Origin: Thermoplasmatales archaeon SW_10_69_26
Lineage (GTDB): Archaea; Thermoplasmatota; SW-10-69-26
Reading direction: 5' to 3'
DNA length: 64,000 nt
Assembly (NCBI GenBank): GCA_003009755.1
Contig: PXUB01000030.1
Location: 1 to 64,000 of the forward strand
Each line of letters begins with the position of its first letter. Within the stretch, counting starts at the first letter, position 1. This document shows, piece by piece, positions 18,226 to 60,152 of this stretch. Under the pieces are notes generated by a model. That model made no database searches and was not told where the DNA came from. It saw only the letters and a list, made by a program, of their open reading frames with translations. Both the position numbers and the translations under genes were made by a program.

Positions 18226-19881
18226 CTACGTGCCGGGGTCCTGCACGGCGTCGCGAGCCGTCTTCTCCGTGGCGAAGTACTCGTCCACGTCGCTTCGGTC
18301 CGGCTCGGCCGCCTTGCCCTCCAGCACGGCGAGGGCATCCTGCAGCGCGGCCGGCGTCGCGCCGCCGTAACCGACGACCGGGTACGCGGGCGCGTCGTCG
18401 GGCAGCTCCTTCCACGTGACCGGCGAGGTCACGCAGCCGGGGCAGTACGGGTTGCCGGCCGGGCCCCAGCGCTCGGATTCCCGTTGGCCCTCCTCGGTCG
18501 AGGCCTCGCCCGTCCAGTGGGTGTCGCCGTCGTGGCGGCCCTCGCTCGGGCGCGGCTCGGCGGTGTGCTTCACCAGCTTGCGGAGCTCGTCCAGGGTCAG
18601 GTCCCCGTCCTCGATCGGGCCGTCGACCGCCGCGCCGACGGAGCCCTCCGCGATCACGCCGTCCTCGACGCCGAGGCTCGCGTCGTCGAGCACGGTGCGC
18701 GCCTCCTGGACGAGGCGAGCGCCGATCCCGGCGGCGTACGGGGACGAGGCCGACGTGCAGCAAGCAAACGGCGTCGGGCCCGCGCCCTCGAGCTCGGTCG
18801 GACCGGCGGCGAGGCCGCGGTAGCCGTCGGCGACGAGGTGCGGGGGCGTGCCCTGCCAGTGGGCGACGTGCCCGTTGTCGTGAGCGCCGACCCAGACCAC
18901 GTTCTCGCGCAGCGTCGGCTGGATCTGCGTCGGCCAGGGCGTGAACCCGAAGAAGCCGCCGGCGCCGTTGCCGGAGGCGAAGTAGACGAGGTGCTCGTCG
19001 GCCGCCTGCTCGATCTGCTCGGCCCCCTCCGAGCTGCGCGCGCTGTTCACCGGTTCGGGGACGAGCGAGCCCCAAGAGTTGGTCTGGACGTCGATCCAGT
19101 CCTGCTCGGCGGCCCACGCGACCTGCTCGCCGCCGGAGCTCTCGACCGAGACGATCCGGCAGTCCGGGCAAAGCGAGGTCCCCTCGCCAGCGAGGCGCGA
19201 GGCCGTCATCGTCCCGTGGCCGTGATCGTCGAGGATCGGCGTCTCCTCGCAGCGAGGTCCGTCGCCGCCCTGCGGATCGTTCACGTACGAAGCCGGCGCG
19301 GGCTCCACCGGCGGGCAGAACGTGCCGCCGTCGCCGGCCGAGATGGCGCCCACGATGCGCGTGCCCGGCACCCAGTACAACTGGTCCTCGGTCACGTTCT
19401 CCCAGACGTCGCTGTCGGCCTCGACGGCCTCCTCCCACGAGTCGGCGTCCAGCGTCAGGTTCAACGCCTGCGCGTCCTCGGGGTAGCCATCGATGTACTC
19501 GCTGGGGTGCGTGTACGCCAGCTCGGAGTCCTCGCGGAAGACCTCGTGGTAGGGGTTGATGCCCGTGTCGATGTGAGCCGCGACCGCCAGCGGTCGAGCC
19601 GCCGGGCCCTCGTCGGCGCCGGCCACCGAGCCGGTCCCGTTGCCACCATCGCCAGCCGTCTGCTCGTCGGTCTCGTTGCCGCTTGCCTGCGAGGGCGAGC
19701 CCTCGTCGGCGTCTCCGTCGTCGGAGCCGCTGTCGGCCTCGCCACCGTCGTCGGCGGCGTCCGATGCAGGATCGACGTCGTCCGAGGCTTGAGGGTCGAG
19801 CTGCTCGCCACCGTCGATGCAACCGGCCATCAGGCCGGCGCCGGCGACCAACGCGACCGCGAGGAGGAGTTCCGGGCGCAC
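18226..19881 (-). CDS. S8 subtilisin-like serine peptidase lipoprotein
   Basis: MAGC lipobox; IDTG (Asp), HGHGTMTAS (His), ASGNG oxyanion, CTSASSP (Ser). Confidence 0.85.
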   Translation of the reverse strand: MRPELLLAVALVAGAGLMAGCIDGGEQLDPQASDDVDPASDAADDGGEADSGSDDGDADEGSPSQASGNETDEQTAGDGGNGTGSVAGADEGPAARPLAVAAHIDTGINPYHEVFREDSELAYTHPSEYIDGYPEDAQALNLTLDADSWEEAVEADSDVWENVTEDQLYWVPGTRIVGAISAGDGGTFCPPVEPAPASYVNDPQGGDGPRCEETPILDDHGHGTMTASRLAGEGTSLCPDCRIVSVESSGGEQVAWAAEQDWIDVQTNSWGSLVPEPVNSARSSEGAEQIEQAADEHLVYFASGNGAGGFFGFTPWPTQIQPTLRENVVWVGAHDNGHVAHWQGTPPHLVADGYRGLAAGPTELEGAGPTPFACCTSASSPYAAGIGARLVQEARTVLDDASLGVEDGVIAEGSVGAAVDGPIEDGDLTLDELRKLVKHTAEPRPSEGRHDGDTHWTGEASTEEGQRESERWGPAGNPYCPGCVTSPVTWKELPDDAPAYPVVGYGGATPAALQDALAVLEGKAAEPDRSDVDEYFATEKTARDAVQDPGT

Positions 19882-20061
19882 GCCCCCGAAGCGGAACCAG
19901 GGCCTCGTAAACGTTTGCCTCCCCCGGTGGGTGAACGAACGGTCGACGGGGGAGGGGAGGAGGGCAGCGGGCGGGCGAGGTGAGCGCCGGGGCGCGGTCG
20001 TGGGAGGGGACGAGAGGTGGAGGAAACGAGGGAACAGAGGTGGCACCAACGTGAGGCTGAG

Positions 20062-20756
20062 GCGAGCATCCGACCGTGCGGTATCCCCCGGCCAAGGATG
20101 CTCGCAGTTCGGGCGGATCGGAGATCCGCCTTCCTTCGAGGGTCGGACCCGTGTGGTCGCCGCCGGGTCAGCGACCCTCGAAGTTCGCCAGAATCGTGTG
20201 CTCGGTGTCGGTTCGGGCTTCTGCGAGCATCGGACCGCACGGTGGGCACCGGTCAACGATGCTCGCAGTTCGCACGGCCTCGGCGGTGGGCGTGGTCGGC
20301 CGTGCTCTCCCGAGAGACCGCCTTCTGCGGACGCGAGGTGCCCGAGGGGCTGCGGTCTCTCGGGATTCGTACCCCCGGCTACATCCTATCCTCTGTGGAC
20401 GATGGCTGTGAGGATAGGATGTACGCGAGCATCCGACCGTGTGGTATCCCCCGGCCAAGGATGCTCGCAGTTCGCACGAACGCCCGGGCAAGTGGCACCC
20501 GGCGTTCGTGCTCTCCTCAGCTCCAGCTGTCGCTCTGTCGACCTGCTGGAGCTGAGGACGGTGGTTACCGGTGGTCGCTCGGGGTCTTCACATCAGGCCT
20601 CTGCGAGCATCGGACCGCACGGTGGGCACCGGTCAACGATGCTCGCAGTTCGTACGAACGTCGGCTCTCTCTCCACGAGGTCTGCAGAGCAGACGTTCGT
20701 ACTCCCGCTACATCCTATCCTCTGTGAGGCTGTGGCTGTGAGGATAGGATGTAGCG
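20062..20756. repeat. Mosaic array of hairpin modules 3' of tRNA-Arg(GCG)
   Basis: Four copies of gcgagcatc...gatgctcgcagttcg, two copies of tacatcctatcctc...gaggataggatgta, and other palindromes joined by 1-4 nt linkers. Confidence 0.9.
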
Positions 20757-20828
20757 GGCGCGCCGTGATTTGAACACGGGTCCTGGCCTCCGCAAGGCCG
20801 GAGGATATCCAAACTACCCTACGCGCCC
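20755..20828 (-). tRNA. tRNA-Arg(GCG)
   Basis: Cloverleaf GGGCGCG...UU-GCG-GA...GUUCAAAUC...CGCGCCC-G; CCA not encoded. Confidence 0.96.
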
Positions 20829-20899
20829 GGGCTGCATCCGCCGAAGAGAAGGGACCCCTTCTTAGCCCTTTGCACGGCTCGGGTGAGCCTCGCACGGCG

Positions 20900-21045
20900 C
20901 TACAGCTCGTCGCGGATCAGGCCGACGACGAGGAGCAGCGAGGCCAGGGCCAGCAACGCCACGAGCAGGCCGACGGCGGCCACCCAGCCGGTCTGGTCGA
21001 CCAGCGTCCCGGTCACGACGCTGCCGGAGGCTACCACGAGCCGGA
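20900..21045 (-). pseudogene. C-terminal remnant of a membrane (MFS-like) transporter
   Basis: ASGSVVTGTLVDQTGWVAAVGLLVALL resembles MFS TM11-12; no upstream body. Confidence 0.45.
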
Positions 21046-21107
21046 CGCGAGAGGGTCCCGTATGCTTTCCCCAGGGACCCAGCGCAGGGCCGACGAGCCT
21101 TCCGCCC

Positions 21108-21479
21108 TCAGCCGTCGGTGACCGGGTGGGCGACCGTGCTCGACAGCGCGTTCTCGGCCTGGCGGGAGTCCAGGCGGGTGTGCTGGACGACGACCGGGTG
21201 GTCGGCCTCGACGACGCTGGCGAAGGGCGTGGCCCTCGGGACCGGCTCGGGATCTCGCGCTCGTCGAACCGCAGGTGGCGGGTCCGATCGGCCCGCACCG
21301 TGGCCTCGTCGGGGCCCACCGGTTCGCGGTCGGGGAAGGGGATCGTCAGCTCGACCGAAGCATCCCGGTCGCCAGCGTCGAGGGGCAACGGTCTCGTGGC
21401 TGATCATCTCGGGTTCGGGCCCGTGGCTGCCCTCGGGGATGTAGCCTTCGGCGATCGCCCAGCGACGCTTGCCGATCAC
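21108..21479 (-). pseudogene. Sensory rhodopsin transducer (ASRT/DUF1362) homologue with two compensating frameshifts
   Basis: IGKRRWAIAEGYIP..SHGPEP..SHETV and PVVVQHTRLDSRQAENAL in one frame; the middle DREPVGP...RTRHLRF lies in another frame. Confidence 0.85.
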
Positions 21480-21597
21480 GGGATCCGACCCGAGGGCCCG
21501 CGGGGGCTTTGACAACCGACCGAGGCATACCTGTCGGCCCTCGCGAAGATGTCGGCCTGGCGTGATCTCAATACCCGATGCCTTGTGAGGGTTGGTC

Positions 21598-23451
21598 GTG
21601 GCCTATCGTCCGATCGCCGAGTACACCGCCATCGGGAATGACGACCGATGCGCGCTGGTCGATCGCCACGGCTCGATCGACTGGTGCTGTTTCCCCACCG
21701 TCGCCTCCCCGAGCGTGTTCGCTCGCATCCTCGACGACGAGGAGGGCGGCCACTTCTCGGTGCATCCCACGGCCACCTACGAGAGCGACCAGACCTACCT
21801 CGACTGGACCAACGTCCTCCAGACGGTGTTCCAGACCCGGACCGGCCGAGCCACCTTGACCGACTTCATGCCCGTCGGCGAACGCGGGAGCGTCCAGCGA
21901 TCGATCTACCGCCAACTTCGCTGCGACGAAGGCCGGCTGGGGTTCGAGGCCGAGTTCAAGCCCCGCCCCGACTACGGCCGCGCCGAGACCAAGGTCAAAC
22001 GACGACGCAACAGCATCGTCGCCGTCGGCGACGGGGACCGGCTGCACCTGCAGACGTGCGGCCCGATCCACCTCACCACCAGGGGCGACCGCGCCGTCGG
22101 GACCGGGACGATCGCCGAAGGCGAATCCGTCTGGTTCGTCGCCCAGCACGGACACTTCCAGAAGGTCACCGCCGAGGAATGCCACGAGCGCGAGGAGGCG
22201 ACCGTCGAGCACTGGCGCGAGTGGACCGAGGGCCTGAAGCCGCGTGTCGACCAGATCGTCGGCGACGAGCCCTGGCAGGAGGAGATCGTGCGCTCGGCGC
22301 TCGTGCTCAAGCTGTTGATCCACGAGTCCAGCGGTGCGATCTACGCCGCGCCCACGACCTCCCTCCCGGAGGCCTACGGCGGCACGCGCAACTGGGACTA
22401 CCGCTACAACTGGATCCGCGACGCGAAGTTCACCGTGCAGGTGCTCTACAACCTCGGCGAGACGAAGGAGGTCCAGGACTACTTCGACTGGTTCCGCGAG
22501 GTCAGCCACGAGGACCCCGAGCACATCCAGCCCGTCTACGGCGTGCACGGCGAACACGACCTGCCCGAGCACCAGCTCGACGACCTGGCCGGTCACCGGC
22601 ACTCGCAACCGGTCCGCGTCGGCAACGAAGCCGCCAACCAGCACCAGCTCGACGTCTACGGCGCGATCGTGCAGGGCCTGTACGAGACGCTGATCCACGA
22701 CGGCGGGCTCGACGGCGACGACTGGCGGTCGATCCGGTCGATCCTCAACCACGTCTGCAAGGTCTGGACGGAGCCCGACGAGGGGATCTGGGAGTTCCGC
22801 AAAGGGCCTCGCCACTACGTCCACTCCAAGCTGCTTTGCTGGGTGGCCCTCGACCGCGGCATCCGCATGGGCCGCCGCTACGACAAAGACGCCCCCTTGG
22901 GGCGATGGAGCAAGGAGAAGACCGAGATCCGCGAGGCGATCCTCGAGCACGGCTACAGCGAGGAAGCGAACACGTTCGTGCAGCACTTCGAGACCGACGA
23001 CCTGCTCGACGCCACGGGGCTTTTGATCCCGATCTACGGCTTCCTCCCGACGAAGGACGAGCGCGTACAGAACACCATCCAGCGCGTCATCAGCCGGTTG
23101 CTGACCCCCGAGGGCCTCGTCTACCGGACACGGCAAGAGGCCGAGGCCGACGGCCGCGGCGCCTTCCTGATGTGCTCGTTCTGGCTGGTCAACGCGCTCG
23201 TCCTCGACGGCCGCGAAGAGAAGGCGCGCGAGATCTTCCAGGGGATCCTCAGCCACGTCGACCGGCCGACCCTGTTGGCCGAACGCATCGACCCCGACAC
23301 GAGCGAGTTCCTCGGCAACTACCCGCAAGCGTTCAGCCACATCGGCCTGATCAACAGCGCGATCTACCTCTCCAGCGCCTCCAACGAGCGCAACCCCGAG
23401 CACGACCCCGTCGAGGACGGGCCCGACCTCACGCCCCTGTTCCGGATCTAA
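21598..23451 (+). CDS. Glycoside hydrolase family 15 (trehalase/glucoamylase-like)
   Basis: GSIDWCCFP, AAPTTSLPE, RNWDYRYNWIRD, GIWEFR, LGNYPQAFSH. Confidence 0.95.
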   Translation: MAYRPIAEYTAIGNDDRCALVDRHGSIDWCCFPTVASPSVFARILDDEEGGHFSVHPTATYESDQTYLDWTNVLQTVFQTRTGRATLTDFMPVGERGSVQRSIYRQLRCDEGRLGFEAEFKPRPDYGRAETKVKRRRNSIVAVGDGDRLHLQTCGPIHLTTRGDRAVGTGTIAEGESVWFVAQHGHFQKVTAEECHEREEATVEHWREWTEGLKPRVDQIVGDEPWQEEIVRSALVLKLLIHESSGAIYAAPTTSLPEAYGGTRNWDYRYNWIRDAKFTVQVLYNLGETKEVQDYFDWFREVSHEDPEHIQPVYGVHGEHDLPEHQLDDLAGHRHSQPVRVGNEAANQHQLDVYGAIVQGLYETLIHDGGLDGDDWRSIRSILNHVCKVWTEPDEGIWEFRKGPRHYVHSKLLCWVALDRGIRMGRRYDKDAPLGRWSKEKTEIREAILEHGYSEEANTFVQHFETDDLLDATGLLIPIYGFLPTKDERVQNTIQRVISRLLTPEGLVYRTRQEAEADGRGAFLMCSFWLVNALVLDGREEKAREIFQGILSHVDRPTLLAERIDPDTSEFLGNYPQAFSHIGLINSAIYLSSASNERNPEHDPVEDGPDLTPLFRI

Positions 23452-25016
23452 GGCTGCACGGCCTCGCCGGGCCGCTGCAGACAGGTCGTCATGACGTCGG
23501 CCTTCTCGTTCCGTGTGTCGACCCAGGCCGGCCAGGCGCACTCGACCGAGCTGTCGATCTCGATGTAGTCGCCGAGGAACGTGAACCCGCCCTGGTGCTT
23601 GCTGTAGGAGGGGTCGCTGGAGACGTCGGTCACCCGGGACTCCATCGACCAGGACTCGCCTCCGTCCACGCTGTAGCGGTGGTAGACGTCCAGCAGACGG
23701 TTGTCCTCGTCGTGGCGGCGGTCGTACCAGGACACGTCGACCACACCGTTGGGGTTGACGCTGATCGTCGGCAGGAACTGGTCGTTCTCGGTCGCGTCCT
23801 CGTTCAACGGGATCGGATCGCTCCACGTCTCGCCGCCGTCGCTGCTGCGCGTGAAGAACACGTCACGGTGCCCGTCAGGCGTGGCCGCGTACACCATGTA
23901 CACGTTCCCGTCGTGGGGGCCTCCGGTCTCGTCGGCCTCCACCATGCAGATCTGCCCGCTGCGGTACTCGGCCTCCATGCCCTCGTCGACGGCGTGCACG
24001 ACCTTCTCCCAGTCCCCGAAGCTCTCGCCGCCGTCGGTGCTCTTCGCCAGGTAGGGCCCCTCGCTCGTGCAACCGCTCACGTAGACGGTGCTCTGGGAGC
24101 CGGTGGCGACGAACAGCTGGCTCGGACTCGTGCTCTCGGCGGGCGTGTTGTTGAGCGCCTCGGGCGTGCTCAGGGACGTCGGGAGGTTGTCGAGCAGGAC
24201 CGGGCCCTCCCAGGTCTCGCCCTGGTCGTTGGACTTGTAGACGAGGTTGCCGGGCGTGAAGATGCCGTCCCAGGCGACGTAGACGGTGCCGGTCTCCTGG
24301 TCGGCGGCGATCCACTGCCGGTCGTGGAAGTTGACGGGGAACGTGCCCGAATCGATGAGGGTGACGTCGCTGATCGTCTCGCCGCCGTCGTGGCTGACCA
24401 TGACGCCGATGCTCACCCGGTTGAACGCGACGTCGTTCAGCCCGCTGCAGGGGACCGCGCCCGTTTCGTTGTTCACCGCGCACGTCGCCGTCTCGCCCAA
24501 CGCGCTGCCCGTGACCGGGTCGCCCTGGTAGGCCAGGAAGGTGTAGTACATCGTGCCCTCGGGCCCGAACTCGACCACCGGATCGGACATGCACCAGTAC
24601 TGGCTGGCCTCGTTGGCCTCGAAGGCCGAGCGGTTGTTCATCGCCAACCACGGCGAACCGGGCAGGTTGCGGCTGTCGAAGGTCTCCCCGCCGTCCTGCG
24701 TCACATAGATGCCGTCCCAGACGCAGTCGCCGGCCGACTCGGGGTAGTAGTCCTTGGCGCCGGCGACGACGTTGTCCGCGTCGGCCGGGTTGACGGCGAC
24801 CGTGACCTCGTTGCCCTCGCGATCGGGCTCGTTCAGCGTGTCGTAGTTGCAGGACTGGTTCCCGCCGCGCTCGACGCACCGAGGTTCGGCGGCCACCAGC
24901 TCCTCGTCCTCGAGGACCGAGGCCTCCTCGAGGCTCTCGTCCTCGGCTCCGATGCAGCCAGCCAGCATCGGGGACACCAGAGCCAGCGCGAGCGCGACAG
25001 CGACGGTCGAACGCAT
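23448..25016 (-). CDS. BNR/Asp-box repeat (sialidase-like) lipoprotein
   Basis: LAGC lipobox; SxDGGETW repeats; WYDRR; FLGDY. Confidence 0.85.
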   Translation of the reverse strand: MRSTVAVALALALVSPMLAGCIGAEDESLEEASVLEDEELVAAEPRCVERGGNQSCNYDTLNEPDREGNEVTVAVNPADADNVVAGAKDYYPESAGDCVWDGIYVTQDGGETFDSRNLPGSPWLAMNNRSAFEANEASQYWCMSDPVVEFGPEGTMYYTFLAYQGDPVTGSALGETATCAVNNETGAVPCSGLNDVAFNRVSIGVMVSHDGGETISDVTLIDSGTFPVNFHDRQWIAADQETGTVYVAWDGIFTPGNLVYKSNDQGETWEGPVLLDNLPTSLSTPEALNNTPAESTSPSQLFVATGSQSTVYVSGCTSEGPYLAKSTDGGESFGDWEKVVHAVDEGMEAEYRSGQICMVEADETGGPHDGNVYMVYAATPDGHRDVFFTRSSDGGETWSDPIPLNEDATENDQFLPTISVNPNGVVDVSWYDRRHDEDNRLLDVYHRYSVDGGESWSMESRVTDVSSDPSYSKHQGGFTFLGDYIEIDSSVECAWPAWVDTRNEKADVMTTCLQRPGEAVQP

Positions 25017-25146
25017 CGGCCCTCCATCGCCGGGCAGCCCTTTGAAAGCTGCTGTGCAACAGGTCTCCGGGTCGTCCCATCGAGCCTGTGGTTTGTCCCT
25101 CAAACGCTTCACCCCACGTCCGGTCTCCCCTCGGTGAGTGATCCCG

Positions 25147-25836
25147 ATGGCTTCGAAGACGCGCGCGATCCTCCTGGCTGTCGTGTTGTTGGGCGCCGGG
25201 CTGGCCGGGTGTGCAGAGACCGACGACACCGGCACCGACGACACGACCGATGACGAAGACACCGGGGACCGAGATACCGGCGACCGCGACACCGGGGAGC
25301 GGGACACGGGTGAGCGCGACATCGGTGACCAGAACCAGACCGATCGCAACGATACCGGTACCCAAGACGCCCAGATGCAGGACTACAACGAGACCTTCGA
25401 GGGCACGATCGACGGTGAGAACCACGAGGAGAACTTCACGTTCCCGGTCAACGACTCCCAGGCCAACCTCACGGTCGAAGCCAACCTGCAGGGTGACGCG
25501 GTCGACGACTTCGAGGCCACCGTCTGGGACGCCGAGATGGAAGAGGTCTGCACGGTCTCCGACAGCGGCACCGACGTGGGAACCGGCATGGGTGACGACG
25601 AAAGCCGCTGCGAAGAGGCGACCCAGAACATGGGGAACTACACCCTGCAGGTCTGGGGCAACTCCACCACCGAGGACGCCGACTACACGCTCAACGTGAC
25701 CGTGGAGTACGGCGACCAGCAGACCACGACCGACGACACCGGCAACGGCGGCGACGATCGCCAGACCGATCCGCGGCAGACCGACGAGCGGCGGACCGGC
25801 GACGCGGACGGGTCCGACGACGGTATCTACAACTGA
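25147..25836 (+). CDS. Acidic lipoprotein with GDRDT pentapeptide repeats and a PPC-like beta domain
   Basis: LAGC lipobox; (GD/ERDT)n; GNYTLQV...YTLNVTVEY. Confidence 0.75.
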   Translation: MASKTRAILLAVVLLGAGLAGCAETDDTGTDDTTDDEDTGDRDTGDRDTGERDTGERDIGDQNQTDRNDTGTQDAQMQDYNETFEGTIDGENHEENFTFPVNDSQANLTVEANLQGDAVDDFEATVWDAEMEEVCTVSDSGTDVGTGMGDDESRCEEATQNMGNYTLQVWGNSTTEDADYTLNVTVEYGDQQTTTDDTGNGGDDRQTDPRQTDERRTGDADGSDDGIYN

Positions 25837-26049
25837 GCTCTCGGTCGGGCCGCCGTCGACACCCGACCCGGGCCGGGGCCCCAGGGGCCAGGGTCTGTCT
25901 TGCCCTCTGTTCTCATCGGCGACGGAGCGAGGGACACCGTCGCGCCGAGGCCACGCTGAGGCCGGATCGTCCACGGTCAGATGTTCGGGACGTCCACGCA
26001 GCGATCCCCGCGTGCGCTCGAGCCCGCTCGGCGAAGGAGACGTTCTTCC

Positions 26050-26272
26050 ATCGAGGGTTGGACCCAAGCGATGGGAGCCGGGTCAACAACCCTCGAAGTT
26101 CGCCCGAACCGGGCGCTAGATGTCGGTTCGGGCTCCCGCGAGCGTCAGACCGTGTGGTATCCTCCGGCCAAGGATGCTCGCAGCTCGCACGAACGCCCGG
26201 GCAAGTGGCGCCGGGCGTTCGTGCTCTCCTCAGCTCCAGCTGTCGCTCTGTCGACCTGCTGGAGCTGAGGAC
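26050..26272. repeat. Mosaic hairpin array 3' of tRNA-Arg(CCG)
   Basis: Same modules as 20134-20220 and 20425-20561, near-identical over about 135 bp. Confidence 0.9.
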
Positions 26273-26345
26273 GGGCGCGACGAGATTCGAACTCGTGTCC
26301 AAGGCTCCGGAAGCCCTAAGGATATCCAGACTACCCTACGCGCCC
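26272..26345 (-). tRNA. tRNA-Arg(CCG)
   Basis: Cloverleaf GGGCGCG...UU-CCG-GA...GUUCGAAUC...CGCGCCC-G. Confidence 0.96.
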
Positions 26346-26522
26346 GAGCTGGCGAGCCATCGGGCCCTCGTATGAAAACGTGATGGCCGAGCTCAGAAGG
26401 CCCATCGCTCGGGAGGGCCGTCAGCACCCTCCGGCCGCGCCCGCTCTGGTCGGCCCGCCGTCCGGTTCCGGTGCCGCCCGGTTCACGCTGTGGCTGCCCG
26501 AGCGGGAGCCGCGCCCCGTCGA

Positions 26523-48844: not shown

Positions 48845-48964
48845 TTCGACGTTTTACCGTCGAAGGTTTGCTCGGGAGACCTTGAATGCGATTAGCCACG
48901 CCGCGCCGCCTCACATCAAACTCTTATACGCCTCCCCCATATATCTGGCCTGCGCGGAAGCGTT

Positions 48965-49037
48965 GCGGGTGTAGTATAGTCTGGTAGTACACGGCCTTGC
49001 CATGGCCGTTGCGCGTGTTCAAATCACGCCACCCGCA
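48965..49037 (+). tRNA. tRNA-Gly(GCC)
   Basis: GCGGGUG...CGGCC-UUGCCAU-GGCCG...GUUCAAAUC...CACCCGC-A; TATA-like elements upstream. Confidence 0.96.
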
Positions 49038-49365
49038 TCCTCTCTCGCGTTGATTCCTCAGGGACTCCCATCGCCAGGCTCGGCTGAGGGGCCGCTGGCG
49101 GTGTCGCGCTGCATCGGAATCCCTCCGAGGGAGCGTCACGTGCGGGTGGCGTGAGCGGACGGCCGGCCGCAGCCACCGCCGAGGGCGTGCGAATCGAGAG
49201 CATCCGTAGCCGACGCGACCGTGCGGCTCGATGCTCTCGAGTGGCCAGATCTGCGATCTGGTCGAATCTCAGGGCCGACGGCGGAAATCGCCCGTCGGTC
49301 CTGAAGCCACCCGCATCCTCTCTCGCGTCGAGTCCTCGGTTCGCACGGCCTTCGGCCGTGCTCTC
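49028..49365. repeat. tRNA-Gly trailer with direct and inverted copies of the tRNA 3' end and hairpin modules
   Basis: 23-bp direct repeat 49028-49050 / 49306-49328; 14-bp inverted copy 49141-49154; hairpins related to those at the tRNA-Arg genes. Confidence 0.85.
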
Positions 49366-49663
49366 GTGAGGGGGGTGTGCTCTGCGTGTGAAGAGGAGGC
49401 GGGGGGCCGGGGGAGACGCCACCGGCCCCCGTCGAGGCGCCGACGGGCACAGCTGGGAGGCAAGGTCCGTCGCGGTCGTAGGCGGGTCAGCGGTAGGGAG
49501 TCGCACTGCCCTCCGACGCCAAATCGTGACAACTAGTGTCACAGTATCAAGGTTGCGGTTCGGTCGCCTCGGGCGAGGTGCGTCGACCCGGCCCGCGGGG
49601 GCTGTGGGCCGACACGGAACGACTTAACTCCCGAGGCCCGTTCCCTGCCGCACGAGGGTCACG

Positions 49664-58112: not shown

Positions 58113-60152
58113 TTGGCCTCCGACGAGGACGAGGACATCGACGACGTCGACGAGGAGCTCGCCCGCATCGAGGAGCAACTGCAGGAGCTCGATCGGAAGG
58201 CGAGCCCGGAGGCTCCGGACCCCGAGCCCGAGGACGTCGACGCTCCCGCCCCCGAGGAAGCCTTCGAGGGCGAACCCGACGTCGACGAGGACGACGGCCG
58301 CCTGTCCCAGCTTTTCGACCGCTTCCGCGCCGACGACGACGAGCCCACCGACGAGACGTCGGGGGACGCCGACGAGGGGGATGGCGGCGGGCTCGGTTTC
58401 TTCTCCGACGACGAGGACACCGACCCCGACGAGACCGACGACTCGCCCACCGACGAGGCCTCCCCGGCCGACACCGACACGGTGCCCGACGAGGACGGCT
58501 CCCGGCAGACCGAGGACCCGGTCGTCGACGACGATCCCCGCGGGGACGCCAGCGAGGAGCCTGTCGACGAACCCGACGAGGAGCCGGGCTCCGCGGACGA
58601 GATCGACGAGGCCGACGACACCGGGACCGACGAGGAGGACGCCGACGACGACGGCTTCCTCGGTGGCCTGACCTCCCGCTTCGCCTCGGACGAGGAACCC
58701 GAGGACGAGCAAGCCGAGGTCGAAGACGCCGAAGCCGACGGGACCGACGCCGACGACGAAGCGGACGATGGGTCCACCGGCCCCTTCGGCCTCCTCTCCG
58801 GCTCCGACGACGAGAACGAGGACGAGGAGACCGAACGCGACGAGCCGGCCGAGAACCCCGAGCCGTCCGACGACGCCAACGAAGACGACGAGGCGACCGT
58901 GGCCCCCGCGGCCGCCACGGCCGGCGACGCCGAGGACGACCCAACCGACGATGGTGCCGACCCCCCCGAGGAGCCGGCCACCGCCGCCTCCGAGGACGAG
59001 GAGGACGAGAAGCCACGGGCCTCCGCCCTCCTGGCTCGCTTCCAAGGCGGCTCGGGCGACCCCGACGATCCCGCGGCCGAGGACGAGGACGACGACGATG
59101 GTGGCGGGATCCTCGTCCCCGCCCTGATCGCCATCCTGCTGCTGGCCGGCTTGGCCGCCGGCGCCTACTTCCTGGTTCCCGGATCCTCGACCGGCGACGA
59201 CCTCGACGCCGCGCTGGTCGCCGACTCCTTCACCGACGACGGCGGCAGCTACGTCGCCACCACCGGCGAGCCGATCACGCTCGACGCCACCGCCAGCACA
59301 GGCTCGATCGACAGCTACGTCTGGAGCTTCGGCGACGGCAGCGAGGAGACGACGAACGAGCCCACCGTCGAACACACCTACCGGGAGCGCGGCACGTACA
59401 CGGTCGAGCTCGCCGTCGAGAACGGCGACGGTCAGGCCGAGACCACGATCGAGGTGACGGTCGTCGACCCGCCGAGCGCCACGGCCAGCGCCCGCCTCGG
59501 CGGCGAGGCCGTCGCCGAGCCCGGCACGGTCGGCAACAACGTGTTCGTCGGCGACGGCCTCACCCTCGATGCCAGCGCCTCCAGCGCCGATCCCGACCGG
59601 TCGCTGTCCGGCTACGAGTGGGACGTCGACGGCGACGGCGAGACCGACGCCAACGGCCCCAACGTCGAAGTCACCCTGGACGATGTGGGCCGCTGGACGC
59701 CGACCCTCACCGTCCGCGACGACCTCGGCAACGAGGACACGACGAGCCTGCCGGTGCACGTCTCCGACCGACGCACCCTCGAGGACACGCTGGGCCCCAG
59801 CTCCACCGAGGCCGACACCGACTCCTACCCCCTCCAGGTCGATCTCGGCCGGCAACAGGCCCGCCCGATCCAGCTCGGGCTCGAGCTCACCTACAACGCC
59901 TCCGGCAACGACACCGGCGACGTCCCCGTCCAACCGATGGTCGAGCCGGATCTGGACCTCAACGTCACCGACCCCGAGGGGACCGTCTTCCAGGCCGACG
60001 ACGACGAGGGCGAGGGCGCCGAGTCCCTGACCGTCGCCGGCGAGGATCTGGCCAACCTCGGCGAGTGGAACGTCACCGTCGCCCAAGACAGCCAGAACGC
60101 CGGCACGGCCAGCGAGGCCGAGTACGAGCTGACGATCCGCCGCCTGTACTGA
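58113..60152 (+). CDS. Membrane protein with long acidic disordered N-terminus, single TM and PKD domains
   Basis: About 330 aa D/E-rich region, one TM, WSFGDG and WDVDGDG PKD domains. Confidence 0.85.
   Translation: MASDEDEDIDDVDEELARIEEQLQELDRKASPEAPDPEPEDVDAPAPEEAFEGEPDVDEDDGRLSQLFDRFRADDDEPTDETSGDADEGDGGGLGFFSDDEDTDPDETDDSPTDEASPADTDTVPDEDGSRQTEDPVVDDDPRGDASEEPVDEPDEEPGSADEIDEADDTGTDEEDADDDGFLGGLTSRFASDEEPEDEQAEVEDAEADGTDADDEADDGSTGPFGLLSGSDDENEDEETERDEPAENPEPSDDANEDDEATVAPAAATAGDAEDDPTDDGADPPEEPATAASEDEEDEKPRASALLARFQGGSGDPDDPAAEDEDDDDGGGILVPALIAILLLAGLAAGAYFLVPGSSTGDDLDAALVADSFTDDGGSYVATTGEPITLDATASTGSIDSYVWSFGDGSEETTNEPTVEHTYRERGTYTVELAVENGDGQAETTIEVTVVDPPSATASARLGGEAVAEPGTVGNNVFVGDGLTLDASASSADPDRSLSGYEWDVDGDGETDANGPNVEVTLDDVGRWTPTLTVRDDLGNEDTTSLPVHVSDRRTLEDTLGPSSTEADTDSYPLQVDLGRQQARPIQLGLELTYNASGNDTGDVPVQPMVEPDLDLNVTDPEGTVFQADDDEGEGAESLTVAGEDLANLGEWNVTVAQDSQNAGTASEAEYELTIRRLY

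Follow-up and report, generated by a model that had tools for sequence, protein, structure and literature searches.

Directly behind the 3′ end of a tRNA-Arg(GCG) gene in Thermoplasmatales archaeon SW_10_69_26 (GenBank assembly GCA_003009755.1), some 700 nt of DNA are tiled by stem-loops of several types. This array lies at 20062–20758 of the window, which is the whole 64,000-nt stretch analyzed (positions 1 to 64,000 of contig PXUB01000030.1), and its modules belong to a dispersed, covarying family with strong enrichment at tRNA 3′ ends. With a probability of roughly 0.55, palindromic DNA modules that carry no genes have piled up locally in this array, and they form a young population specific to this Thermoplasmatota genus or species. 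Such an array would grow by duplication at its gene-proximal end, leaving older copies, often with the old gene end, further downstream, and modules would pass between arrays by homologous recombination or gene conversion, as may have happened to a 138-nt block carried by two arrays behind tRNA-Arg genes. Complementarity between the arms of each hairpin would be maintained in the DNA itself, through correction of one arm by the other or through selection for a substrate of hairpin or cruciform shape. A sequence-only reading had described the array as a system resembling repetitive extragenic palindromes (REPs) and bacterial interspersed mosaic elements (BIMEs), with cassettes that are recognized by their structure and gather through an enzyme encoded elsewhere, or that are co-transcribed small RNAs; its observation is confirmed and its interpretation is partly supported.

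A dispersed family of covarying hairpins

The source genome (G000) is a metagenome-assembled genome (MAG) of 2.82 Mb in 49 contigs, about 69% G+C and 95% complete, in which an archaeal RNase P RNA is present. The nearest matches of its Hel308 helicase are in uncultured Thermoplasmatales/Thermoplasmatota MAGs (65–73% identity), and the stretch occurs in public runs labelled as halite metagenomes, which makes the host an uncultured high-GC Thermoplasmatota archaeon and not a haloarchaeon. In minimum-free-energy folds of either strand, as DNA or as RNA, 20062–20758 resolves into 13 strong and two weak stem-loops placed nearly end to end, which agrees with the earlier count of about 13 except that one 43-nt stretch does not make a good hairpin. 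The DNA fold of the 695-nt stretch reaches −230.5 kcal/mol, compared with −145.9 ± 5.4 in 20 dinucleotide shuffles (z = −15.55, 0/20 as good), and the RNA fold reaches −400.7 kcal/mol, compared with −287.4 ± 7.4 in dinucleotide shuffles (z = −15.35). Rfam 15 has nothing in the array at gathering thresholds, and only chance-level miRNA-like matches at E up to 1.

Pairing is preserved through sequence change. An alignment of 28 copies of module A, the hairpin that occurs four times in the array, has 95.7% of its 420 cells paired and changes on both sides in 11 of the 16 pairs; none of 500 shuffles is as good, and slid partners pair in only 26–41% of cases. Covariation had been named as a check on the family, and module A shows it. 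BLAST with the focal array as query has hits at more than 15 other loci of the genome, and a covariance model built from the 28 copies (R1) finds 43 distinct places, 28 of which are the training copies; the new ones include module C of the focal array and of a second array described below. Recognition of C by a model trained on A bears out the proposal that the two share one architecture (E value in Table 1). With about 137 candidates scored per genome, R1 has no place in five same-family genomes from other genera, and a set of 35 genomes at greater distance gives one weak match. A search pattern for module A, narrow in that it covers exact stems of the G-C-closed allele only, has no match in the genome_contigs and metagenome_contigs collections.

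A clear grammar governs the dispersed copies, in which small connectors and larger hairpins (A, C, D and others) alternate. The connectors have the stem base NACG...CGTN and, on the strand of the upstream gene, GA(GA) before them and GAAC(T) or GAATC after them; a GAA/TTC flank accompanies 31 of 188 NACG...CGTN connector hairpins, against 205 of 7068 hairpins overall. On the tRNA strand, the gene-proximal hairpin abuts or takes in the 3′ end of the gene. Orientation is uniform, in that all 11 arrays with at least two A-family copies keep them on one strand, which is at odds with the alternating orientation of BIMEs. By crude gene calls (based on G+C at third codon positions, covering 73.5% of the genome), the connector side faces the upstream gene at seven tandem-gene loci versus one, and the connector-side gene is the nearer one at 10 of 11 convergent loci. 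All 29 A copies examined lie outside these calls, bar one inside a call with an over-extended start. The distal (A) sides of 16 loci, compared by eye, have no common flank, and many arrays are located at contig ends.

Enrichment at tRNA 3′ ends

Hairpins were counted in the 300-nt flanks of tRNA genes as stems of 12 or more positions, one mismatch at most included, with loops of 3–34 nt. For 57 tRNAs called by ARAGORN, 52 hairpins lie downstream, compared with nine upstream and 6.2 expected from the genome mean. For 45 vetted tRNAs (the Rfam model supplies 41, and ARAGORN alone four plausible ones), the numbers are 50 and eight, with one or more hairpins at 24/45 downstream and 7/45 upstream; accumulation at tRNA 3′ ends, as had been proposed, is therefore genome-wide. 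At protein genes, a hairpin lies within 120 nt of the 3′ end in only 99 of 1837 crude coding sequences (CDS; 5.4%) versus 46 at 5′ ends. Module A itself sits mostly away from tRNAs, nine of its 43 places (in four arrays) being tRNA-linked and 34 elsewhere. A search for hairpins with AGTTC/AGCTC next after them was swamped by coding-sequence matches and was set aside.

Relatives in the same family differ from one another. From 15 loci fetched in each of two genomes, out of 41 and 37 tRNA matches, 13 tRNAs were usable in each; G002 has 20 hairpins downstream and six upstream, and G001, from a sister genus, has three and one. The hairpins are therefore dispensable and vary with the lineage. G000, G002, G003 and G005 are array-rich, G001 and G004 array-poor. 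Behind tRNA-Arg in G002, G003 and G005, a hairpin stands at the position of the tRNA-proximal hairpin of the focal array (E1), with unrelated arm sequences, a pattern that hints at some lasting constraint or process.

Integrity of the array

The array is not an assembly duplication. It was compared with four halite metagenome runs, X1 to X4, in which the uncovered parts of X2–X4 are uninformative. Contigs of X1 tile 19500–21300 with no difference, and a 351-nt contig of X2, a run from a separate study, spans 20104–20454 and five module borders with 19 differences; contigs of X3 and X4 add cover of 20520–20652 and 20683–21300. A collapsed or chimeric repeat region is hence next to negligible as an explanation, and comparable arrays behind the same tRNAs in relatives speak against it as well. 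What can be said for an artefact is that the genome is a 49-contig MAG and that the X1 and X2 contigs are short assembly-graph (Logan) pieces, broken inside the identical copies of module A allele 2 (A2). Because the pieces break in A modules, the order of the two A2-flanked blocks depends on the single path that uses every piece once.

In X2, a 2022 halite run, the focal module C has the stem and loop version of the array behind tRNA-Arg(CCG), including the compensatory changes C>T at 20144 and G>A at 20173, and gene conversion between the two Arg arrays is possible from this module. Two joints, 20558 to 20755 and 20221 to 20424, were considered as deletions and rejected, being cross-mapping of the paralogous tRNA-Arg(CCG) array (one record continues into the flank of that tRNA). 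Low-depth joints in X3 (20300 to 20507, 10 shared letters, depth 6.4) and X4 (a back-joint, depth 2.2) are too weak to interpret.

Organization of the focal array and neighboring loci

Coordinates are collected in Table 1. Read on the tRNA strand, the order is E1, B, A2, the 43-nt spacer, H5, B, A1, and then E2, a four-base B remnant, D, B, A2, a weak connector, C, a short connector and A1. ARAGORN upholds the location 3′ of tRNA-Arg(GCG). E1, whose perfect arms lie at 20704–20722 and 20740–20758, takes in the last 5 nt of the gene, an overlap already seen in the sequence-only reading. The repeat finder returns 29 inverted-repeat pairs in 19900–20900 and a 64-nt unit (module A plus flanks) four times, at 20052–20115, 20213–20276, 20415–20478 and 20593–20656. 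The two alleles of module A that had been described are real, with a closing C-G at 20062 and 20425 and a closing G-C at 20221 and 20601; the claim that a single compensatory pair separates them does not stand, as loop and inner stem differ too. The linkers, given earlier as 1–4 nt and often TTC, were roughly right: they measure 1–5 nt and on the plus strand are mostly AGTTC or TCTC/TTCC. Copies of the D-type hairpin occur elsewhere on contigs C29, C25, C13, C28, C48 and C6.

Table 1. Features of the hairpin array, its flanking genes and the second Arg array, in window coordinates (I and D numbers: inverted and direct repeats)
Feature	Position	Strand	Evidence and remarks
Subtilase (S8) gene, downstream of array	18226..19881	-	PF00082; GTG start 19881, lipoprotein-type signal
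Module A allele 1, first copy; distal array end	20062..20107	-	I24; R1 E 6.8e-15
Short connector hairpin	20112..20130	-	folds
Module C, divergent A-family member	20134..20183	-	I18; R1 E 7.3e-12; architecture as A
Weak connector hairpin	20189..20218	-	folds; better-paired copy in second array
Module A allele 2, first copy	20221..20268	-	I12; R1 E 2.7e-17
B-type connector hairpin (GCACGGCC...)	20272..20305	-	folds; dispersed copies
D-type hairpin, perfect 14-nt arms	20308..20365	-	I6; loop has motif common to family copies
Hairpin E2, second copy of E1	20375..20423	-	D5, D7, D13, I1, I3; adjoining B hairpin shrunk to GTAC
Module A allele 1, second copy	20424..20470	-	repeat finder, alignment, covariance model
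B-type connector hairpin (GCACGAACG...)	20474..20511	-	I9
Hairpin H5, perfect 14-nt arms	20514..20558	-	I8; BLAST
43-nt spacer without strong hairpin	20559..20600	.	folds
Module A allele 2, second copy	20601..20648	-	D1, I14; R1 E 3e-17
B-type connector hairpin, stem base GTACGAACG / CGTTCGTAC	20652..20702	-	I4; B-type census
Hairpin E1, perfect 19-nt arms	20704..20758	-	I2, folds; one arm holds last 5 nt of tRNA
tRNA-Arg(GCG)	20754..20828	-	ARAGORN; array 3′ of tRNA on minus strand
Second, shorter array	26045..26274	-	directly 3′ of tRNA-Arg(CCG); from tRNA: H5, B, A, connector, C
tRNA-Arg(CCG)	26269..26346	-	ARAGORN; Rfam 51.7 bits

The second Arg array is closely related to the focal one. 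BLAST aligns 20424–20561 with 26137–26274 at 95.6% identity over 138 nt, a block made of H5, B and A1, and the module C copies of the two arrays differ by a compensatory pair. The two tRNA-Arg genes are spaced by about 100–1500 nt in same-family genomes and by 5.4 kb here (20829–26268), an interval that holds an open reading frame (ORF) with an ASRT domain, a trehalase-like gene and two unassigned ORFs; an insertion behind the tRNA-Arg(CCG) array possibly explains it. Another array of the window follows tRNA-Gly(GCC) (48964–49040) and contains an A-family copy at 49187–49241 (region 49040–49400).

tRNA-Arg(GCG) has orthologues of 80–92% identity in same-family genomes. The Rfam tRNA model misses it at gathering, at E up to 1 and in a whole-genome search; by eye, there is a C.A mismatch at the top of its anticodon stem. 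Three more ARAGORN tRNAs with abutting hairpins are likewise missed by the Rfam model (C27:4729, C29:7056 and C38:41575). About 180 nt separate the array end from the subtilase start, and between them, at 19882–20061 on the plus strand, lies a purine-rich tract with short direct repeats (D9, D10). The array's neighbors are the subtilase gene and the ASRT-domain ORF, and no gene of the window accounts for the hairpins, in keeping with the proposal that any responsible enzyme is encoded outside it.

Copies of gene ends beyond the hairpins

At many tRNAs, the 5′ arm of the next hairpin equals the 3′ end of the tRNA itself, or the hairpin begins at the discriminator base followed by TTCTC. Within 500 nt downstream of 15 of the 45 tRNAs, 14–19 nt of the tRNA 3′ end (from the T-loop interior to the discriminator) recur as an exact direct copy, some in tandem with periods of about 115–125 nt, and an inverted copy occurs within 200 nt downstream of 14 of the 45. 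A typical unit starts with the gene end and a loop, continues with the inverted gene end or T-arm and a connector hairpin, and closes with a large hairpin and the old gene end. Several loci would also fit a clean insertion of double hairpins into partial tRNA copies at the T-loop (GTTCG^AATCC), but removal of the hairpins leaves no clean T-arm. Three protein genes have the same layout, namely C22:43954–44964 (52 nt duplicated, with TAG versus TAA stops), C40:34400–35347 and C19:44956–46011. The last 20–52 nt including the stop codon are repeated past the cassettes at C22:44900–45350, C40:34050–34450 and C19:44700–45010, the C19 locus consisting of three tandem units. As the focal array holds no copy of 14 nt or more of its tRNA end, what speaks there for an old end left downstream is the E1/E2 pair: E2 retains the flank that pairs with the tRNA end in E1 (repeat finder), as if it were an older gene-proximal hairpin shifted outwards.

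These units could be taken as the product of an undescribed, polar accretion process in one Thermoplasmatota family, in which a structure-specific enzyme would act at gene 3′ ends, especially the T-arm/acceptor end of tRNAs, make a copy of that end and attach an inverted one together with a connector and a large hairpin, so that the old end is moved downstream. Growth would then resemble that of integron or CRISPR arrays, with A, B and D as substrates or by-products. It is a tentative idea, and we consider it improbable.

Site-specific recombination is an unlikely explanation too, whether a tyrosine or other recombinase captures cassettes at the 3′ ends of genes or the cassettes are scars of repeated integration and deletion at tRNA attachment (att) sites. 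The direct tRNA-end copies that bound cassettes at 15/45 tRNAs, partly in tandem, are what it would produce, and the three tyrosine recombinase matches of the genome (on C2, C19 and C1) all adjoin tRNAs; behind tRNA-Gly(CCC), a hairpin array comes first and an integrase gene next. In A and C, one arm has a 2-nt bulge that recalls the extrahelical bases of integron attC sites. At tRNA-Phe, a classical integrated element of 13.8 kb (C19:58919–72742) has a tyrosine recombinase gene (59113–59667) and repeats 18 nt of the tRNA end in direct orientation (72725–72742). Its displaced old tRNA-Phe end at 72369 keeps its own hairpin cassettes, so these belong to the chromosomal flank and not to the integrated element. 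Each cassette has an inverted copy of the end of its own target, which is impossible for a cassette moving between targets. Moreover, the focal array has neither a nearby integrase nor a tRNA-end copy, 34 of the 43 A-family places are not at tRNAs, and the presence of recombinases does not track array richness in the six family genomes. The integron reading fares no better, since no integrase or attI-like partner lies beside the array and the tyrosine recombinases, none of them in the window, are on other contigs.

Candidate enzymes

If there is a mover, the assembled genome does not supply it in the form of a Y1 HUH transposase, TnpB or Cas1. The Y1 HUH domain (PF01797), which comprises TnpA and the REP-associated tyrosine transposases (RAYTs), has no match in any of the six family genomes (72–95% complete), G000 among them, and control genomes gave matches. 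TnpB domains (PF07282, PF01385) and retroviral-type integrases are likewise absent from G000, and Cas1 (PF01867) has no match in G000, G002, G003 and G005, being found only in an array-poor genus (g2). What the genome does encode is one DDE transposase (DDE_Tnp_1), one serine recombinase (C7:55821–56267), the three tyrosine recombinases and IS110 transposases, which have three matches and occur in G000 only among the six family genomes. The two full IS110 genes (C3:88341–88769 and C2:62978–63406) share 85% DNA identity and both lie near contig ends; they were rejected as movers because neither is embedded in hairpin arrays and their presence does not track array richness.

A true REP/RAYT system, or one derived from IS200/IS605 elements, would require the gene of its HUH enzyme to lie on an unbinned replicon or in the 5% of the genome that is unassembled, and we regard it as very improbable. 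Dispersed imperfect palindromes, conserved short flanking motifs and mosaic arrays are in its favor, and so is the location of many arrays at contig ends, so that repeats and their neighbors are under-assembled. The absence of PF01797 extends to the array-rich genomes G002, G003 and G005, there is neither PF07282 nor PF01385 in G000 itself, and orientation within arrays is uniform instead of alternating. Nor does BLAST match the array to the assembled regions or ends of the IS110 and DDE elements. Thus, the HUH-based mechanism offered in the sequence-only reading, of the RAYT or IS200 type, is not borne out in this family.

DNA palindromes or RNA elements

Several results weigh against the favored explanation. 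Of six enzyme families tried, none tracks array-rich versus array-poor genomes among the six of the family, no insertion or excision event was caught in the four metagenome runs, and no empty site, target-site duplication or terminal inverted repeat is definable for the dispersed copies. Copies of at least 14 nt of the tRNA-Arg(GCG) or tRNA-Arg(CCG) end are lacking in their arrays, and duplicated protein-gene ends are not enriched genome-wide (8 versus 9 in the control). Three observations point to strand-specific reading, unpredicted by a pure DNA-palindrome model. One is the fixed orientation relative to the upstream gene, according to the crude gene calls. Mismatches in module A are A.C in 10 cases versus G.T in 2 (about 7 versus 2 independent), which would mean G-U pairs on the sense strand. 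Finally, in the first 50 nt 3′ of 43 tRNAs genome-wide, RYAGC occurs in loops of tRNA-proximal hairpins on the sense strand in 17/43 versus 3 on the reverse, with about 15% expected and the motif chosen post hoc.

The last three of these observations favor an RNA-level element, in which the hairpins would be co-transcribed with the tRNA or upstream gene as a 3′ trailer and act there as a terminator or as an insulator of the subtilase gene, stop exonucleases or signal processing, with some perhaps released as small RNAs. The same is true of the direct abutment on the tRNA 3′ end, of the hairpin at the same position, with unrelated arms, behind tRNA-Arg in G002, G003 and G005, and of the T-runs that follow tRNA-Arg or tRNA-Ala in more distant relatives and are absent from this family; TTTT within 40 nt of the tRNA occurs at only 1/13 tRNAs in G002 and 1/13 in G001. 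RNA elements under selection are expected to have G-U pairs on the transcribed strand. No such excess is found over all hairpins in tRNA 3′ flanks, where sense-strand mismatches are G.T in 13 and A.C in 12 cases; a genome-wide strand test of G.T versus A.C in intergenic hairpins, run at a loose threshold where chance hairpins dominate, gave no signal. In addition, tRNA expression in the family does not require hairpins, since the tRNAs of G001 have neither these nor T-runs. Such a hairpin stands at only 5.4% of crude CDS 3′ ends, no Rfam family matches, and one hairpin would be enough for termination or protection, which leaves 15 in a row and the dispersed families unexplained. For these reasons, the RNA-level element is, in our estimate, fairly unlikely.

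On balance, DNA-level palindromes, selfish or neutral, are preferred over an essential RNA element, as hairpins are nearly absent at the G001 tRNAs and the sense strand has no G-U excess; these palindromes may have secondary effects on transcripts. If this reading holds, an archaeal lineage keeps a large REP-like palindrome population without the only enzyme family known to move REPs, and its palindromes home to gene 3′ ends, above all those of tRNAs. With dozens of loci, a clear grammar, and array-rich and array-poor sister genera, it would provide a tractable case for how enzyme-less hairpin repeats spread, a question that is open for mitochondrial GC clusters too. It should be noted that hairpin arrays break assemblies and can mislead the annotation of tRNAs and small RNAs.

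Comparison with known systems

No description of hairpin arrays behind archaeal tRNA genes was found in the literature, a search that most subscription journals lay outside of. The systems that come nearest each share a part of the picture. Integron attC sites have the inverse core sites RYYYAAC and GTTRRRY; the array linkers GTTCG and CGAAC misfit this consensus at the fourth base. Palindrome-associated transposable elements (PATEs) are end-only derivatives of the IS200/IS605 type in haloarchaea. The term is used in PMC3119063. They resemble the present modules as small, non-autonomous, archaeal elements with terminal hairpins, and differ in that G000 has no TnpA or TnpB to pair with its hairpins.

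In E. coli, the tyrT-distal repeats stand in tandem directly 3′ of a tRNA gene and contain copies of the tRNA 3′ end. The rtT RNA (Rfam RF00391) is encoded in the tyrT operon. The likeness lies in the tRNA-end copies, found here at 15/45 tRNAs; the difference is between one E. coli locus and genome-wide dispersed families, and the focal array has no tRNA-end copy and no Rfam match. WHO homing elements at the yeast FBA1 gene encode an endonuclease, and with every event the target gene receives a new 3′ end so that old ends stack downstream (PMC7282813). Stacked old ends are also seen here at tRNAs and at the C22, C40 and C19 genes, whereas the cassettes encode nothing and the focal array shows no stacking.

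Fungal mitochondria contain G+C-rich palindromic clusters and double-hairpin elements, which have no known enzyme, occur singly and in tandem arrays, and undergo merger and shuffling of modules; their structure is conserved with changes concentrated in loops, and in Neurospora they flank tRNA genes (PMC4478555). They are closest to the present system in behavior, sharing gene-free hairpin modules, single or tandem occurrence, loop-centered changes, shuffling and tRNA flanks. They differ in that the present modules reside in an archaeal chromosome that is already 69% G+C, have unrelated sequences and show no AG target duplication.

REP, BIME and REPIN elements are bacterial, are mobilized by RAYT, a Y1 HUH transposase, and in the case of REPs carry a GTAG-type 5′ tetranucleotide. 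In common with them, the modules are imperfect palindromes, short and rich in G+C, of which there are tens of copies; they are extragenic, lie mostly 3′ of genes, are assembled into mosaic arrays and are species-specific in sequence. In contrast, a Y1 HUH gene is lacking in all six family genomes and a GTAG-type 5′ tetranucleotide is absent, and each array has one orientation, two alternating hairpin classes and a strong preference for tRNA 3′ ends. Computational work has reported palindromes of the REP-like kind from archaea too (PMC12306157). As a description, REP/BIME is the nearest prokaryotic kind, from which the array stands apart by the lack of a RAYT gene and by orientation.

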